A stretch of DNA of 63,207 nt, the filler included, from Collodictyon triciliatum (lineage: Eukaryota), in assembly GCA_043381765.1 (NCBI GenBank). It is 36 parts of 36 records of this genome, joined end to end, with 100 filler letters (N's around TTAATTAATTAA, not from the genome) between each part and the next. Parts side by side here need not be neighbours in the genome. Positions count along the whole stretch, not along the records: positions 54,546 to 56,198 come from JBHJMP010010523.1; 35 more parts are not named here. The stretch is one strand, 5' to 3'. The translations under genes were made by a program, and so were the position numbers. This document shows positions 42,260 through 57,488 of the stretch, in pieces; the first letter of the stretch is position 1, and each line of letters begins with the position of its first letter. The notes beneath the pieces are model-generated. The model was not told where the DNA came from. It saw only the letters and a list, made by a program, of their open reading frames with translations, and searched no databases.

Positions 42260-43915
42260 GTGGAGTTTGAGTTTGGTGCGATGAATCATGGTGTATAGGG
42301 GTTTGAACTGATGGGTGTGACAAAGGTGACGCTCTTGGATGAGGGGACGGAGTACGGTTGGGTGAAGGTGCGAGCGAAGTTGTTGGACGAGGTGGGAGCA
42401 GAGTTCTATTAAGCGAGTGAATCATCGATGGCGGCAAAGGAGGTGGTTGGTGAATAGGTTTCAACGCTGATGATTCGTTGGACACTGGGATGAAGGGTGG
42501 AGCAGAAATTGAGTCAGGAATGGTCGGTAGTTGTTGTGTGTGATGAACTGCTGAAGGTGGAGGAAGTCGACTCAATGACGGAAGGTGAACTTTGTGTGAA
42601 GCCAACATATGTGGTAAAGCTTTTGGTTGGACTGGGGCTAACTCTGTCTTGATATGTAGTTTTTCATTATGTTCCTCATACAATGTTTTATCTGCCAACT
42701 TGCCTGGGGTCTCGGAAATATGTAGTTTTGCAGGTTCGAACTTCTTTGGAGCCAAAGTCGAATGCACATGAAGAGAGCCGTTAGTAATAGGATTGTTTTG
42801 GACTGGGGTTTCTTTCTGTGGTTCTCTCGGCTCATCTTGCTCTTCTAAGCGCGCAGGAGATCTCGGAGAGGGAATAGTATCTGAGTGTGAGTTGAGCATG
42901 TTTTGGCTTTGTGGCTGGATATGGGATTGAATTTCTGAGTGTGGTATGGAAACCATTTCTGGGAAAGAATCCAGCGGAGGAAGAGAGGGAACAGATAATC
43001 CAGTGTGATTTCGTATTTCTGGTGGTAGAGTTGGAGGTGCAGGATATGGACGGTTTCTGTATGGTTTTGAAGCAGACTTTGCTCGGACCACCTCTTGAGA
43101 TTGATTGTTCACTTTGGCAAGATTTGTTGGGCTACTACTTGTAGATGATAGCGAATGAGCAGACCCTTCTGATGGTAAAAATGAGCGAAAGACCCGCAAA
43201 GCTTTCAATCCTTTTAAACGGGACAGGGAAGCAGTCTTTTTGCTCTGATTATTGACATCATGAATAACATTCTGGCTTATTGTTGACAAGTTTAAAGGAT
43301 TTGAGCCAAATGAAGAATTTGAAACAGAAATTGATGGAGCTCTTAAGACTCGTTTTGGTTTTGGTAGTTGAGACTCGCTAGGTTCGCTCATATGAATTTT
43401 TGATGAGTTTATCTCATCCAGAGGGCCACCGGATAAAATGTCATTTACCCTTTCACTATTTTTATTTGATAAATACACCCTGTCAACTTTTGAACTGTTT
43501 TTTTTGGAAATTCTCTTTAAACCACCTGAAAAAATTCTACGAATGAAACCTTTCGGCTTTGAGTCATCGCGCGGTGTATGCGAAGAAATCGAGGAAGCTG
43601 TTGATAGAAAATTATTGCCGAGTAAATTATCAGAACTTACTTGCCTATCTTGGTTGCTATTGTCCTTTGTAATGTTTTCCGTACCACTGCCATCCGTGGA
43701 ATTTGTCGCGTTTTGTTTCGGATGGTCAATCGCCTTATTTTTTCCATTCCTAATAACATTTGTCATAGAACTACTTCCTTTTTCCACAGAACCATAATTC
43801 TTTTTGGAAATGTGCGATTGTCCTTGTTCGGGTGCATTTTTGTTCACTTTTCGGCGACGCAAGAGAAAAAATGCGCAGAAACAAATACCTAAAACACCAA
43901 TGACTCCCCCCACAA
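42260..43915 (-). CDS. Fragment of a single-pass membrane protein: TM helix plus a long Ser/Pro-rich cytoplasmic tail
   Basis: Open frame of about 550 codons across the whole contig; VGGVIGVLGICFCAFFLL followed by the RRRK stop-transfer motif. Confidence 0.75.
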
Positions 43916-44543
43916 NNNNNNNNNNNNNNNNNNNNNNNNNNNNNNNNNNNNNNNNNNNNTTAATTAATTAANNNNNNNNNNNNNNNNNNNNNNNNNNNNN
44001 NNNNNNNNNNNNNNNATAAAAAAACCCCAATAAAAAAACCCCAATAAAAAAACCCCAATAAAAAAACCCCAATAAAAAAACCCCAATAAAAAAACCCCAA
44101 TAAAAAAACCCCAATAAAAAACCCAATAAAAAACCCAATAAAAACCCAATAAAAAACCCAATAAAAAACCCAATAAAAAACCCAATAAAAAACCCAATAA
44201 AAATCCAAAAAACAACCAAAAACCCAATATAAACCAACAGTAGCTTAAAAAACACGAAAGGAAAACTTTAGATCAACACCCAAAATCGTGTCGGGATACT
44301 TGGAACGAACCTGGAGCGGCGGCTTCTGCCAAATTCCAAGAACAAGCGACGTGGGACGGGACTACAAATAAACCTAAAGACAGAATTTAGACTGCCTCAG
44401 AACGGGGGAATGTCCTTCGCTACGACGCTTTTTACTTAAAGCGAGACTCACTGACACACACACACACACAACAGCACATTCGCAGGCTCACAAACCCAGA
44501 GACAGCCTGGTACGTTCGCACGAAAATATATATATATGTAAGC

Positions 44544-45230
44544 ATGACCAAGATGACCAACACTTTGTGCGACGCAAAAAAGGGGCTGTGGCATTTGACC
44601 GAGATTGTCGATAGATTTTATTCTTCTTTTGAGAAGAGGGCGCACACAACTAAGCAAGAGAATGAGATGATTGCTCTTAAGGGAGATATCGAGAAAAGTG
44701 GGTTTATGGTCAGAACAGCCCAATCACGACAAGCTTATCATCGCCCTCACAAACACAGCTTTTTGCTGGTGAAGCATCTGGCAGGCCCTACGGAAAGTAC
44801 AGATGATTGTCCCATCATTGTGGATTTATTCTATAGAGACTTCTTTACATGCAGCCAACAAACTGAGCATTACAACCGCTTCTTCGACCGGCTTCCTCCA
44901 TATTATCTTGGGACCATCCAGTCTCTGCATTCCGTAATCTATCAAGCTACAGCACATCTTCGACAATCCTTTTCTGCTACTTTCAAGTCTTTTCCACCTT
45001 GGAGACAAGCTGGCATCATATTTGGCTATTGGACGGATGTGGAGCTTTTCGTTGCCGATGGATACACACAAGAGTTCGACGAGCTGGTCGGGTGGGTTTA
45101 CCATTCGCTTTCAGAGAGCAAGTTTGATAATGATGGATTGCTCAAAAGTGGCATGGACGGATACGTGGCATCATATCCAACTGACTCATCACCCGACCCT
45201 TCTAGCGACCGTTCTTGCTCACCCAACTGA
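44544..45230 (+). CDS. DUF506 / PDDEXK_6-like protein
   Basis: HSFLLV...IIVDLFYRDFF....TEHY..FFDRLPPYYLGT...L.SVI......LRQSF......FPPWRQ......YW follows the DUF506 pattern (VD.dFR.eF.iArpT..Y...l..LP.vFVG...L..iv...Slk..gl.lPPWR...y...KW). Confidence 0.7.
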   Translation: MTKMTNTLCDAKKGLWHLTEIVDRFYSSFEKRAHTTKQENEMIALKGDIEKSGFMVRTAQSRQAYHRPHKHSFLLVKHLAGPTESTDDCPIIVDLFYRDFFTCSQQTEHYNRFFDRLPPYYLGTIQSLHSVIYQATAHLRQSFSATFKSFPPWRQAGIIFGYWTDVELFVADGYTQEFDELVGWVYHSLSESKFDNDGLLKSGMDGYVASYPTDSSPDPSSDRSCSPN

Positions 45231-50543: not shown

Positions 50544-51174
50544 TGCTGCGCCGCGGCTTTTGCAGAGGGGGTTTGAGTCGGGTGGAGTGGAGTGGAGTGG
50601 AGTGGGGTAGTAGGCTGCCGGCGAAGAAGGCGCGGGTTGTGACGAGGCCCAGACTGGCGGAAACGTGGGTTGAGGTGAGGGTTCTTTGTGTGCGATAAGG
50701 TGTAGCTGTTCGAATGATAGTTTTTGTGTTTTTTTTTCTTTTTGACTTCTTTAGTGGAAATGAAGCGTTCTATGACTCACTTTTAGTCAGTTTACTTCCA
50801 AAAAATGAAAGAGCGGTGATGTTTTCTAGTTTTTGTTTTTTGTTTTTTTTGTTTTTTGTTTTTTTGTTTTTTTGTTTTTTTGTTTTTTTGTTTTTTTTGT
50901 TTTTTTGTTTTTTTGTTTTTTTGTTTTTTTGTTTTTTNNNNNNNNNNNNNNNNNNNNNNNNNNNNNNNNNNNNNNNNNNNNTTAATTAATTAANNNNNNN
51001 NNNNNNNNNNNNNNNNNNNNNNNNNNNNNNNNNNNNNTTTTGATTCCGATTCTTGAGCACCGCATTTCTGTTGAGACGGATGAGGGTTTGGTCATTTGAT
51101 TTGGATTTTATGGGTGTGTTGCTAATTTTGGTTCATCTGTATTAGGTTCAAATAGCAAAAATCTGTATTATCTG

Positions 51175-52251
51175 GGGATGGTTTACTATAACCTTGGAAA
51201 GTATATTTTATTCGATGTGTATTTATTTATCGTTTAATTGACTTATTATTTAATAGACATGACAAAGCTCTGGAGTACTATCACAAATCATTGGATATTC
51301 GACTGAAAGTGTTTGGAGAATTCCACCCTGATGTTGCTGCCTCATATAATAATATTGGGGTGGTTTACAAGAATCTTGGAAAGTATCTTTTATTTGATTA
51401 TGTATTATGTTTATCCCTTCATTAACTTATTATTTAATAGGAATGACGAAGCCCTGGAGTATTATCACAAATCATTGGAAATTCGACTGAAGGTGTTTGG
51501 AGAAGTCCACCCTCATGTTGCCGAATCATATAATAATATTGGGATGGTTTACAATAACCTTGGAAAGTATATTTTAATTTGATCATGTGTTTATGTGTAT
51601 CCTTTCGTTAACTTATTATTTAATAGGAATGACAAAGCCCTGGAGTACCACCACAAATCAGTGGAGATTAAGCTGAAGGTGTTTGGAGAAGTCCACCCAA
51701 ATGTTGCCACGTCATATAATAATATTGGGATGGTTTACTATAACCTTGGAAAGTATATTTTAATTTGATCATGTGTTTATGTGTATCCTTTCGTTAACTT
51801 TTTATTTAATAGGTATGAGAAAGCTCTGGAGTACCACCACAAATCACTTGAGATTAAGCTGAAAGTGTTTGGAGAAATCCACCCTAGTATTGCCACTTCA
51901 TATAATAATATTGGAAACGTTTACAAAAACCTTGGAAAGTATCTTTTATTATTGTATATTTATGCTTATCCTTTCATTAACTTATTATTTAATAGATATG
52001 ACAAAGCACTGGAGTACTACCACAAATCACTTGAGATTAAGCTGAAAGTGTTTGGAGAAGTCCACCCAGACGTTGCCACTTCATACCACAATATGGGTGG
52101 CCTACTCATGAACCAGAAAAAATATCAAGAGGCTTTCGAAGTGTATCAAAAAGCCAACACGATATTCAAGACTGTGTATGGCGCAGACCATCCCCATACT
52201 AAGTTTTCAGAAAAGCAAATGATGAATGCACAGAAGATGCTGACCCGATAA
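51175..52251 (+). CDS. TPR protein (42-aa kinesin-light-chain/TPR_12-type repeats), 3' end
   Basis: 126-nt exons 51257-51382, 51441-51566, 51627-51752 and 51813-51938, final exon 51996-52251. Each encodes xDKALEYYHKSLEIxLKVFGExHPxVAxSYNNIGxVYxNLGK. Confidence 0.93.
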
Positions 52252-52792
52252 GTGGCTCGTCTGTTACCCACCCATCTAAACAACCCATTCATCCACCCAT
52301 ACACCACCCTTTCCACAAAAACAAGTACAAGTGAGCGTTATCTCGATGACCGCCAAACCGAAAGAATGCAGACGACTGCTAGCTTGTTTGCAGAGGCTGG
52401 ATGAAAAGAATAAAAAAAAACTAACCAACCTAACCTTTCCAGCAGTTGCCGATAAACGTGACACGTCTCCTGCTTGTTTGATAACCGACCTTGAGTATGT
52501 GTCACAGGCGAAAAGAATGCTTATGTGTTGGTTATCATTGTGCTACTGAGCTGTATGCTTTTATTTGATTCATTCACATTATTATTTTTTTCGCTTGGTT
52601 AAGTGTCGCAATGTCAGCTTCATGGACACAATCTTTTCTTTTTCTTCTTGCGCCCATGATAATGGTGGGCTGTAACGATACATGCACTCGCNNNNNNNNN
52701 NNNNNNNNNNNNNNNNNNNNNNNNNNNNNNNNNNNTTAATTAATTAANNNNNNNNNNNNNNNNNNNNNNNNNNNNNNNNNNNNNNNNNNNNG

Positions 52793-54445: not shown

Positions 54446-54546
54446 NNNNNNNNNNNNNNNNNNNNNNNNNNNNNNNNNNNNNNNNNNNNTTAATTAATTA
54501 ANNNNNNNNNNNNNNNNNNNNNNNNNNNNNNNNNNNNNNNNNNNNA

Positions 54547-55140
54547 GAAATTACATTGGGGAACATGGGTTCTACATATGATGGGTTTATGTTTGAATTT
54601 TTATTAACTGGGGACTTAAACAATTTTGGTGTCCGGCTTACATGTGCGCTGATTGGAACAGTAATTAAAGTCAGGAGTGGGGCAATAGGTGTAAATACCG
54701 TAACAGCAAACGAGCAATTTACATTTTCAAGACCAAATAATGAGTTTCGTATAATTGGGGGTTTGTTTGGAATAGTGGAACTCCTTACTGGATTTTAATT
54801 GACCGTGGTGTTTATAAACAGAGAGCAACTAATACAAAGTTTACCGGTGGTACTTTAGTTATAGACTGAAGTGCACCCGAGGAAGTATTACTAACGCGTG
54901 CGACTGCTACCACAGTTGAATTTAAAAATTTAGTTACATATGGTGGCAGTCAAGAAGACTATGATGGTTTTACATTTTACCTTGCAACTTCAACAGGCGT
55001 AACGAGCAGTGTTACTTTTAAAAATGATGCTTAGTGCTGTGGTTATAGTGGAAGCTAATGCCTTGGTAACAGTAGCCGAAAATGGAGGAACAACTACTGC
55101 GCTTGCTGCTGGAACTGGATACAGATTGGAGGTGTTTTTT
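54547..55140 (+). pseudogene. Disrupted Gly/Thr-rich beta-strand protein, possibly a viral fibre or structural gene
   Basis: Intronless; frameshift near 54765 and internal stops. Internal repeat YDGFMF / YDGFTF; lies head-to-tail with the two genes below. Confidence 0.35.
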
Positions 55141-55209
55141 TTATAGATACAGTCGCGGGTGGGTTAGCTTGACATTTATATGGCGTTCAATAAATTTATT
55201 TCTTATTTT

Positions 55210-55365
55210 ATGGACCCGGTTCTGATTGTTTCTTTGATAATTAAATTGTGTCTGATTGCTGAGCGAGCGATGAAGTATTATTTAAAACACGTTCGCAAGT
55301 CTCAGTGTTGTGGTAGCGTGATGGAAACGCGTGAACCTAGTCCTGAGAATGACTTGGAAAAATAA
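55210..55365 (+). CDS. Small 51-aa putative viral membrane protein (hydrophobic helix plus KSQCCG)
   Basis: MDPVLIVSLIIKLCLIAERAMKYYLKHVRKSQCCGSVMETREPSPENDLEK*; 10 nt from the next gene. Confidence 0.45.
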   Translation: MDPVLIVSLIIKLCLIAERAMKYYLKHVRKSQCCGSVMETREPSPENDLEK

Positions 55366-55375
55366 ATATTTAATA

Positions 55376-55669
55376 ATGTATGGACTGGTACAGAGATTTA
55401 AAAATTAATAAAAGGTATATAGAGTTAGGAAAGCAAACAACGACAAACATAAGTATGTGGTTTATATAAAAGACGCTGGCTCACGTTCACCGGTGTGGTT
55501 TGGGGATGTATCGATGGAGCAGTACAAAGATAAGTTTAAACAGTACTCATACTTGGACCATGATGAAAAAAAGCGCTTGGAGAATTTCAGGTCACGCTTT
55601 CGAGCATAATATGTAAAAATTAAGGATGACCCTACCAGTGCGTTATATTGGAGTTGGAATTATTTATGG
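55376..55669 (+). pseudogene. Tlr6F-like (DUF5754-type) protein of Polinton-like viruses/virophages/NCLDV, disrupted
   Basis: VYRVRKANNDKHKYVVYIK...PVWFGDVSMEQYKDKFKQYSYLDHDEKKRLENFRSRFRA*YVKIKDDPTSALYWSWNYLW matches KKY.V...FG...Y.D...lDH.D..R...y..R...S..Yws...LW. Internal TAA at 55607-55609 and a disrupted 5' end. Confidence 0.7.
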
Positions 55670-56006
55670 CAGACATTTCGCTGGGTCGGTGGGTCGGTGG
55701 TAAGGCCAAGCATCGCCCTAGGAAATTGGTGTGATTGCAAAACTGCACAAGTGCACAAGGCTCATATGAATTTATTAAACAACCCAGATAATCTATATAA
55801 TAATAACTGGGATACGAATCTATGCTTGCATGTTAGGGTTTGCAGTCTCGCCTGTCATCGGCACAATCTTTCAGTGTCAGGGTTATATTCTCCAAACATA
55901 CCAAATATAATATCATCAGATATGTTTCAGCTGAAATTTCATAATATGATAATATAATATACATTATCTAAAAATCAATATATTTGGGCTTAATAGAACA
56001 AATAAA

Positions 56007-56081
<75 letters not shown>

Positions 56082-57416
56082 AAAAACAATAAAAAACAAA
56101 AAAAAACAATAAAAAACAATAAAAAACAATAAAAAACAATAAAAAACAATAAAAAACAATAAAAAACAATAAAAAACAATAAAAAACAATAAAAAACANN
56201 NNNNNNNNNNNNNNNNNNNNNNNNNNNNNNNNNNNNNNNNNNTTAATTAATTAANNNNNNNNNNNNNNNNNNNNNNNNNNNNNNNNNNNNNNNNNNNNGT
56301 AGTTGTCAGCGAAGGGATTATGGGGAGGAAAGAGGAAAGAATGAAGGCCATAAGAAAGTTTGAAGACTTTGCAAGGGGATGCAAAAATAGGCTTTGGTTA
56401 CCTCGGAGTTTGTGGTTTGGACGGCAGGAGCAGCTTGTGCCATCGTGCCTGTACTTCCTGCAAGTTAATATGAATGAACATACAATTAAGTAAACGAAGA
56501 GAGGGAGAGTGAGAGTGAGAGTGAGAGTGGGAGTGAGAGAAAAAGAAAGAGGAAGTGAGAAAGGAGGTAAGGGTAGTACTGTAACTGTGGACAGTGCGCC
56601 TTCGTTAGGGGCATTGCGCATAGGTAGGAGTGCCCGGAGGCCATTTCTTATGTTATGGTTGCTTTGTTTCGTTGGTGGTAGTAATTTGAATTATTTTTTC
56701 AACTCGTATGAAGGATTGGTTGCGAGGTTTGCATCTTTTCTCATGAAACAGAGTCGGGCGCTTAGGCAAACTGAGCAAGGCTGCCTTCGAAAGGGAAGTA
56801 ACAAATGAATCGGATGCTCCGATGCCAAGGCGAAAAGCCGTGTGCGTTCGTCGGGACTTTGTGTTTGTGGGTTCGGTCGAAGAGGCACGCGCTTCGATCT
56901 GCTGGTCTTGTGGTTGTGCGAAAAGACGCTTCGAATCCGGTTTCACTTATGAAATCAGTCATGTTGCTGCTTGTGCCACAGCATCTTTTTATAACCGCAC
57001 AACGCAGCTTTTAAATAGCGCCCACACGAACAGACAACGGCACACGCGCACAAACCGGGTTTTGAGAGAGGCAGATATAATTGGGATATGTGAGGTTCTT
57101 GGATGATATCCAGGATTGGTTTCGTGCAGAATAATCCCTATTTATATCTCATTTCTATAGTACATCTGTGCACCCGTGTCAATAATTAGAATTGATGGTT
57201 GCTATTCATGAATAGTTTGCCAAATTTTCCTGTTGAATATCTAATTTTTATTAATTATAATAATAATTTTTATTATATCTATTTAGATTTTTTGATTATA
57301 TCAACTTGCTAAAATATATTTATATAAATTCCAGAATTATTCAAAACAGTGATTGATTTTCCTTTTCGATTTAAAATGACAATTAATATATGATATGTTA
57401 TCATACCAAACAGGAG

Positions 57417-57488
57417 TCCGATATGGTGTAGTCGGTAGCACGTATGGCTCTCACCCATACAACCCGGGTTCGATTCCCGGTATCGGAA
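57417..57488 (+). tRNA. tRNA-Glu (anticodon CTC)
   Basis: Acceptor stem TCCGATA/TATCGGA, anticodon arm TATGG-CTCTCAC-CCATA, T arm CCGGG-TTCGATT-CCCGG. 72 nt, no encoded CCA, oligo-T terminator downstream. Confidence 0.96.

Follow-up and report, generated by a model that had tools for sequence, protein, structure and literature searches.

In the window analysed here, a 63,207-bp stretch of the Collodictyon triciliatum assembly GCA_043381765.1, positions 54546-55669, and probably the sequence on to about 55915, appear to be a dead, probably endogenised remnant of an element of the polinton-like virus (PLV) type that has relatives in freshwater metagenomes. We place the probability of this reading at roughly 0.6. 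All three co-oriented, tightly packed genes that an earlier note on this DNA had described at 54546-55669 are present: a broken beta-rich gene (gene 1), a gene for a membrane protein with a CCG motif (gene 2), and a gene that ends in ...YWSWNYLW and has an internal stop (gene 3). On the plus strand, genes 1 and 2 share 14 nt, and a gap of 14 nt separates gene 2 from gene 3; the DNA of the cassette matches that of an environmental relative, locus L010, at E 7e-146.

The window (1-63207) was put together artificially from 36 unrelated, unplaced contigs, each 1643-1677 bp long and roughly sorted by size downward, with 35 linkers between these pieces. Each 100-bp linker consists of 44 N, TTAATTAATTAA and another 44 N, and TTAATTAATTAA occurs in 35 copies about 1.75 kb apart, where chance would give 0.03 copies. 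Because the pieces are joined only by linkers, adjacency across a linker provides no genomic context, and any neighbourhood argument that crosses one is unsafe. The contrast drawn previously between these genes and an intron-rich host is of this kind; it compares unrelated contigs. The piece that carries the three genes has the following features.

54546-56198, no strand: contig that carries the three genes and is their sole true context; 1653 bp, GC 0.34, bounded by linkers, unplaced
54546-55193, plus strand: gene 1 remnant, the C-terminal approximately 210 codons of a putative fibre/spike-like virion protein; collinear with L009:3-1511 and L010:1-666
55180-55365, plus strand: gene 2, an unbroken open reading frame (ORF) of 61 codons; its product is a small membrane protein that crosses the membrane once and has a conserved KSxCCG motif
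55380-55669, plus strand: gene 3, Tlr6F/DUF5754-like, ending ...YWSWNYLW; its TAA was read through for searches
55670-55999, no strand: flank downstream of gene 3, in which no coding similarity is detectable; freshwater metagenome contigs have it too, at least to 55915
56000-56198, no strand: a poly(A) run, then a 10-bp tandem repeat, AAACAATAAA, in 19.5 copies to the contig end

Inverted repeats of at least 14 bp are absent from 54546-56198.

Intact relatives and lesions of the window copy

A scan of metagenome contigs yielded 49 loci. Two of these, L009 (2359 bp) and L010 (1730 bp), run collinear with the window from the fourth base of the piece to 55669. At the DNA level, L010 is 70.9% identical to the window over 1151 columns; for L009 the figures are 80.5% (488 columns) and 71.3% (439 columns). 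All three genes are intact in both loci. The end of gene 1 is there the tail of a long ORF (at least 502 amino acids in L009) that finishes ...FKWFIYAM; gene 2 is a 64-amino-acid ORF (MQCNKF...KSQCCG...) that overlaps the end of gene 1, and gene 3 is a 98-amino-acid ORF (MDW.K.LKINK...WSWNYLW). Approximately 26 bp after the Tlr6F-like gene, both loci encode a D12-class N6-adenine DNA methyltransferase (PF02086, E 2.4e-13), and homology to the window ends at 55669 because this gene follows there instead. Gene content thus differs at that boundary, where the window and one metagenome contig carry unrelated non-coding sequence.

Lesions were read from a DNA alignment with L009 and L010, from protein alignments, and from tblastn searches with the related proteins P0009 and P0018, which match gene 1 at 66-71% identity in two frames (+2, then +1). 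As the assembly stands, the window copy differs from its intact relatives by about nine lesions, comprising at least five frameshifts, three in-frame stops and one lost stop codon.

about 54758-54761, plus strand: gene 1, loss of 1 nt in a G run (G5); one metagenome contig has an extra T
54867-54869, plus strand: gene 1, in-frame TGA; relatives have R, and a metagenome contig with 91% identity has CAA (Q)
near 55031, 55117 and 55135-55150 (T8 run at 55135-55142), plus strand: gene 1, frame changes; the frame of the relatives is intact
55170-55172, plus strand: gene 1, in-frame TGA; W in relatives
after 55352, plus strand: gene 2, 1-nt gap; the ORF is otherwise open
after about 55413, plus strand: gene 3, loss of 1 nt in an A4 run at about 55410; the frame is intact in relatives
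55607-55609, plus strand: gene 3, in-frame TAA; Q in the two nearest proteins
55670-55672, plus strand: gene 3, stop lost, with CAG after the final W; relatives stop here, and a metagenome contig reads T, giving TAG

Since genes 1 and 3 are each frameshifted and prematurely stopped, and gene 3 has in addition lost its stop, the window copy is dead: it can make neither the fibre nor the Tlr6F protein and has no present function. The pseudogenisation proposed earlier is therefore borne out for the sequence as assembled. We infer that the lesions are real beyond their presence in the assembly.

We considered three further signatures of decay or of its absence. An alternative genetic code was rejected because the TGA codons fall on R/Q and W, the frameshifts persist, and a host gene elsewhere in the window (51038-52691) appears to be TAA-ended; Table 6 does turn the TAA of gene 3 into Q, as in the relatives, but the frameshifts and the two TGA codons remain. 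A bias of the kind left by repeat-induced point mutation or deamination was not found, with 24 C>T and 26 G>A among 225 unique changes, which is no excess, and no contrast in the observed/expected CpG ratio. Relaxed constraint was likewise not clearly indicated by the distribution of changes over codon positions.

Products of the three genes

The assignment of gene 3 to the Tlr6F/DUF5754 family rests on its relatives. With the TAA read through, gene 3 matches five database proteins (E 3e-34 to 3e-21, 56-76% identity), and relatives confirmed by tblastn have E values of 1e-9 to 8e-38 for the best. Identity to the eight nearest is 76, 73, 73, 71, 62, 60, 58 and 58%; the other 43 relatives lie at 30-40%. 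We aligned 52 members (alignment A7), namely the window protein, 46 ORFs from the loci and the five database proteins. At E<=1e-3, 44 of the 52 match PF19058 (DUF5754), the best at 6.7e-13, and no other family is matched. Among six proteins of the closest clade, five give PF19058 at E<=1 (best 3.6e-4). The translation of the window gene itself, an 86-residue read-through of a damaged gene, reaches only E 0.063 and 13.8 bits where the cut-off is 27.4, with PF19058 still its top Pfam family. Membership of gene 3 in Tlr6F/DUF5754, the family that the earlier note had named, thus holds by transitive homology, as judged from these alignments.

Across the alignment, K14, F30, G31, Y38, D40, R55, R62 and W86 (window protein numbering) are invariant, and relatives of 88-104 amino acids end at the same W as the window protein. 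A search of the PDB sequences with the A7 profile returned a single chance-level row (E 0.35). In PHROGs, gene 3 matches phrog_7595 (E 1.2e-6), and there is a weak match to a protein of Roseobacter phage CRP-6 (35.8% identity, E 0.02). These two matches are the distant fringe of the family, together with the terminase-bearing loci L005 and L006, where identity of the Tlr6F-like protein to that of the window is 36-37%. A fused form is seen at L048:866-1705, where the Tlr6F-like domain is the C-terminal end of a 280-amino-acid protein and is preceded by a KSPT(R/K) repeat region. The Tlr6F/DUF5754 product is a small, basic protein conserved across PLVs, giant viruses and some phages. Yutin et al. 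2015 (PMC4642659) describe Tlr6f as a conserved gene of almost every PLV that is also present in several virophages, in many 'Megavirales' and in some phages that are poorly characterised; a study of cryptophyte PLVs (PMC12220804) equates Tlr6f with PF19058.

Gene 1 lacks its 5' part, which is cut off by the contig end. Its full-length relatives have 705-861 amino acids, with mosaic, variable N-terminal parts and a C-terminal part of approximately 220-250 residues that is strongly kept in the protein alignment. No Pfam family is found in six full-length relatives at E<=0.1, and the gene 1 pieces have no match in Pfam or PHROGs. The C-terminal domain is rare: among 1.84 billion representatives it occurs in 12 clusters at E<=1e-3. 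In 11 of the 12 it is C-terminal, in proteins of 423-1048 amino acids; the remaining one is a 6899-amino-acid protein, P0028, that matches a 60-residue repeat only. This protein contains 19 stretches resembling residues 122-181 of the domain, so that a portion of the domain is found tandemly repeated in a giant protein as well. Six pattern matches to the domain in IMG/VR were found, and none of the six was confirmed. One relative, P0017, is encoded on an 83-kb contig, and P0018 on a contig of 13.6 kb.

An AlphaFold model of the gene 1 C-terminal domain, built from 21 sequences, is all-beta with a mean predicted local distance difference test score (pLDDT) of 76.9. With VIA-align, the best match of the model among solved structures is the capsid spike of phage Pa223 (Z 9.0, root-mean-square deviation 2.5, 95 residues), followed by the baseplate of KP1 (Z 8.3), tailspike TSP4 of CBA120 (Z 8.1) and the Solidus tailspike (Z 6.8); Z scores of 8-9 are in the range that VIA-align itself calls common. 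Foldseek against the PDB returned no match at E<=1e-3. In BFVD the model has 49 matches at E<=1e-3, with low TM-scores and mostly to uncharacterised phage proteins; some are annotated as being of tail or fibre type, and one is a Marseillevirus Mtd_N protein. As a lead only, the ESM Atlas places P0009 near clusters of Uroviricota hypothetical proteins (0.93), one of which carries T4_gp9_10_N on 11% of its members. Phage-like fibre genes are common in PLVs, and Dam-like methylases are found in some, according to section 13 of PMC12220804. Because of the structural matches, the Atlas lead and these PLV fibre genes, we read gene 1 as encoding a fibre/spike-like virion protein that may act in host attachment.

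Gene 2 has one hydrophobic stretch and the motif KSQCCG. Counted from its second Met, the start used previously, it has 51 codons. It has no match in Pfam or PHROGs, and among 57 loci its homologues are limited to L009, L010 and L011. In L011 the homologue lies directly 3' of the capsid gene and reads ...VLVFERLWKYTVSHLKKSKCCGG... The tail of the window protein deviates from L009 and L010 through the 1-nt gap after 55352, which alters the last residues alone. The intact product, with a juxtamembrane basic stretch and CCG, may be a membrane component of the virion or of its assembly.

Class of the element and resting place of the copy

The nearest relative with a longer context is L011 (12.3 kb), whose Tlr6F-like protein is 57% identical to that of the window. 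A Pox_A32 ATPase gene (E 1.6e-13) adjoins its Tlr6F-like gene, and it encodes a primase-helicase (DUF5906, E 2.2e-15; VapE-like, E 3.6e-8). The model of a 544-amino-acid ORF, for which 19 sequences were aligned, has the fold of a double jelly-roll capsid protein (pLDDT 73, predicted TM-score 0.80). The PDB sequence search with this ORF gave nothing, BLASTP of the L009 fibre against it found no similarity, and in BFVD it has 139 matches at E<=1e-3. By structure it scores Z 24.6 against the capsid of Paramecium bursaria chlorella virus 1 (PBCV-1), 23.2 against Faustovirus, 21.9 against African swine fever virus p72, 18.4 against Sputnik and 16.3 against mavirus. Among the nine ORFs of L011, there is no cysteine protease, integrase or protein-primed polymerase family. 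Across 116 ORFs of 200-850 amino acids from the loci of 19 relatives, we found Pox_A32 four times, DUF5906 four times, PriCT_2 twice and Terminase_6N twice, the terminases being those on L005 and L006. The gene set and gene density of L011 are those of a polinton-like virus, neither a tailed phage nor a giant virus. A viral origin of PLV type for the window cassette, one of the possibilities named earlier, is therefore upheld by the double jelly-roll major capsid protein, Pox_A32 ATPase and primase-helicase of L011 and by the Tlr6F family, whereas the alternative of a virophage is not favoured, given the lower capsid scores against Sputnik and mavirus than against PBCV-1.

A dead copy is most easily kept in a cellular genome, which makes an endogenised copy likely; it might lie in the genome of the assembled organism or in that of an accompanying freshwater eukaryote. 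The lesions are the only argument for such a cellular resting place. Several observations weigh against the reading of an endogenised PLV fragment, beside the subthreshold PF19058 score of the window translation and, for gene 1, the fold matches in the common Z range and the absence of a Foldseek match in the PDB. L009 and L010 span only 1.7-2.4 kb, so the PLV assignment leans on the 57%-identical L011, and the 1653-bp piece itself carries no capsid, ATPase, polymerase or integrase gene. No match was found between the other 35 pieces and 1109 ORFs or proteins of the relatives. On 54546-56198 we found no viral sequence joined to host sequence, and the flank is common to environmental relatives. 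Of the six indels, three sit in homopolymer runs (G5 at about 54758, T8 at 55135-55142 and A4 at about 55410). Changes on the window branch fall on the three codon positions as 50:44:62 in gene 1 and 16:12:29 in gene 3, and neither this spread nor the types of substitution differ clearly from those of L009 and L010. Finally, three short metagenome contigs show 0-1 differences to the window (54547-54638, 54547-54689 and 55455-55605), which means that near-identical DNA exists in fresh waters, outside the assembly. Such DNA would fit a freshwater organism with this very copy in its genome, and it would fit environmental carry-over as well.

The environmental matches extend into the flank. A 151-nt freshwater metagenome contig (X4 record 16) bridges 55639-55790; it is identical to the window over 31 coding bases, differs in the flank by eight substitutions and three gaps, and has the T at 55670 that restores TAG after NYLW. 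Two further contigs (X1 records 7 and 8) cover 55678-55798 and 55849-55915. Metagenome contigs cover neither 54995-55106 nor the sequence from 55916 on, of which 56000-56198 was skipped as a repeat. Against the other window pieces and the loci, and at the protein level, the flank has no match. The junction near 55670 that the earlier note proposed is thus not a demonstrated boundary between virus and host, as a metagenome contig runs across it, and the integration in the host that it proposed is not borne out by an unplaced 1653-bp contig whose flank at 55670-55915 is shared with freshwater metagenomes. Nothing in these data supports, either, the lineage new to this host that the note held possible. 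Small shares of the 31-mers of the piece occur in metagenomes of freshwater, lake water and the subsurface, in nine runs from eight studies. No public run holds half or more of its words, and no RNA run is among those with shares. Of four runs examined closely, three, from freshwater or lake water, gave the short contigs with 0-1 differences.

These data bear most directly on the possibility, which we regard as somewhat unlikely, that the piece is a contaminant or passenger: a freshwater PLV, or another small eukaryote with an endogenous PLV, would have contributed DNA to the sequenced material, and the piece would be an unplaced scrap of it. The contig is unplaced with no host sequence attached, its flank recurs in metagenome contigs including the one across 55670, near-identical sequence is present in the runs just described, and the other pieces of the window are non-viral. 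A free virus, however, is expected to be intact, and with about nine lesions the contaminant would have to be a dead copy or the lesions errors. Composition does not set the piece apart either, with GC of 0.38 in the viral piece against 0.37 in the others and observed/expected CpG of 0.94 against 0.87, a comparison that does not discriminate.

If the lesions had arisen as errors of sequencing or assembly where coverage of the contig was low, or came from collapsed paralogues, the real element would be a functional virus misread as a dead one, which we consider quite improbable. Three of the six indels are in homopolymers, the contig is a small leftover, and the metagenome contigs with 0-1 differences span lesion-free stretches only. 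Yet three substitutions create stops at a conserved R/Q, W and Q and a fourth removes a stop, which is untypical of homopolymer errors, and the lesions are evenly scattered along all of the 1.1 kb, roughly one every 120 bp, with no clustering at the contig ends. The gap after 55352, the one lesion-like state open to an independent check, is shared by the independent metagenome contig X1 record 4 (55151-55362, five differences in 212 bases).

Giant viruses (Nucleocytoviricota) and tailed phages also have Tlr6F/DUF5754-like genes and fibre-like proteins, but an origin of the cassette in either of them is very improbable: phrog_7595 and CRP-6, the terminases on L005 and L006, the leads from gene 1 toward phage tail and baseplate proteins, the 83-kb contig of P0017 and the closeness of the L011 capsid to those of nucleocytoplasmic large DNA viruses (NCLDVs) point that way, but the relatives more than 45% identical are all without phage context, L011, the only one of them with any context, fits capsid, A32 ATPase and primase-helicase into 12 kb at a PLV-like rather than giant-virus density, Pox_A32 and DUF5906 each outnumber Terminase_6N, and the gene 1 domain has no relative in IMG/VR.

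Comparison with known elements, other window features and significance

The closest known counterparts of the dead PLV fragment are the PLVs of aquatic protists. Both free and endogenous forms are known (PMC4642659; PMC12220804), ones with Tlr6F, fibre genes and Dam-like methylases are well documented, and decayed endogenous copies are reported to be common in protist genomes. The window and its relatives share with them a Tlr6F/DUF5754 gene, a phage-like fibre gene and freshwater occurrence; L009 and L010 add the Dam-like methyltransferase beside Tlr6F, and L011 adds the capsid, A32 ATPase and primase-helicase. In contrast to these viruses, the window holds 1.1 kb with no hallmark gene on the piece. 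The Peptidase_S74 chaperone domain, usual in PLV fibres according to PMC12220804, is absent from the six full-length gene 1 relatives searched against Pfam; their fibre C-terminal domain is unannotated, and the KSxCCG protein is confined to the three closest loci.

By description, and as a lead only, 'NCLDV-like' PLVs (Zephyrvirus cluster, VC40; bioRxiv 10.64898/2026.06.19.733378) resemble L009 and L010, in which a methyltransferase follows Tlr6F, and L011 with its NCLDV-like capsid; that preprint describes VC40 as being without a primase-helicase, whereas L011 has one. Tetrahymena Tlr elements and virophages are alike at the level of the virus kingdom, through the Tlr6F family, the double jelly-roll capsid and the A32 ATPase. 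The ciliate code used by the former provides no rescue for the window copy, and virophages such as Sputnik and mavirus differ in the capsid scores and in the three gene families that L011 lacks. Tlr6F-like genes of aquatic tailed phages (phrog_7595, CRP-6) share the pattern FG..M..YKD...DH.D..RR and the C-terminal W, but are only 36-37% identical, lie on terminase-bearing contigs (L005, L006) and are without ...WSWNYLW.

Other pieces of the window, each a context of its own, hold further features.

51038-52691: host gene of kinesin-light-chain-like tetratricopeptide repeat units, one exon each, in a by-eye reading; GT-AG introns of about 75 bp are all in the same phase, and the gene appears by eye to end at TAA
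40505-42157, minus strand: a single open frame of 551 codons fills the piece and runs off both contig ends; it has Ephrin_rec_like repeats, 12 in number (E 2e-84), and NCD3G and TNFR-type cysteine-rich matches
42261-43913, minus strand: 551-codon frame from end to end, with no Pfam family and no usable Atlas neighbour
44391-45230, plus strand: 279-codon frame with a PDDEXK_6 nuclease-like domain (E 1.6e-11)
57417-57488, plus strand: tRNA gene (Rfam RF00005, 67.6 bits), the sole Rfam match in the window

The Pfam families matched by 17 long ORFs from elsewhere in the window were limited to Ephrin_rec_like, PDDEXK_6, Abhydrolase_2 and, weakly, the Spt5 C-terminal domain.

In the life of an intact virus, the cassette would supply a modular fibre that attaches to the host, a mini-membrane protein in the virion or its assembly, and the Tlr6F/DUF5754 protein; the PLV fragment in the window would then persist as a decayed copy inside a cellular genome. 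Going further, we suggest only tentatively that this dead copy lies in the chromosomes of the assembled intron-bearing eukaryote and marks past infection by an undescribed freshwater PLV group. Equally doubtful, and considered jointly with that integration, is the delimitation of such a putative group by the rare fibre C-terminal domain, the KSxCCG mini-membrane protein and the pair of Tlr6F and Dam methyltransferase.

PLVs, both endogenous and free, are already abundant in aquatic eukaryotes, and one more decayed fragment adds little. The new points are modest: the KSxCCG mini-membrane protein, and a C-terminal domain of the fibre that is conserved and unannotated. For the assembly, the finding means that its unplaced contigs include viral or foreign scraps. 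For the viruses, it means that an unannotated PLV cassette, consisting of the fibre C-terminal domain, the KSxCCG protein, Tlr6F and a Dam-like methyltransferase, is found repeatedly in metagenomes from fresh water. Should the rest of the assembly contain copies set within host scaffolds, the host of these viruses would be identified through them, and if the integration is true and the host lineage is one without known PLVs, the host range of PLVs would be wider.

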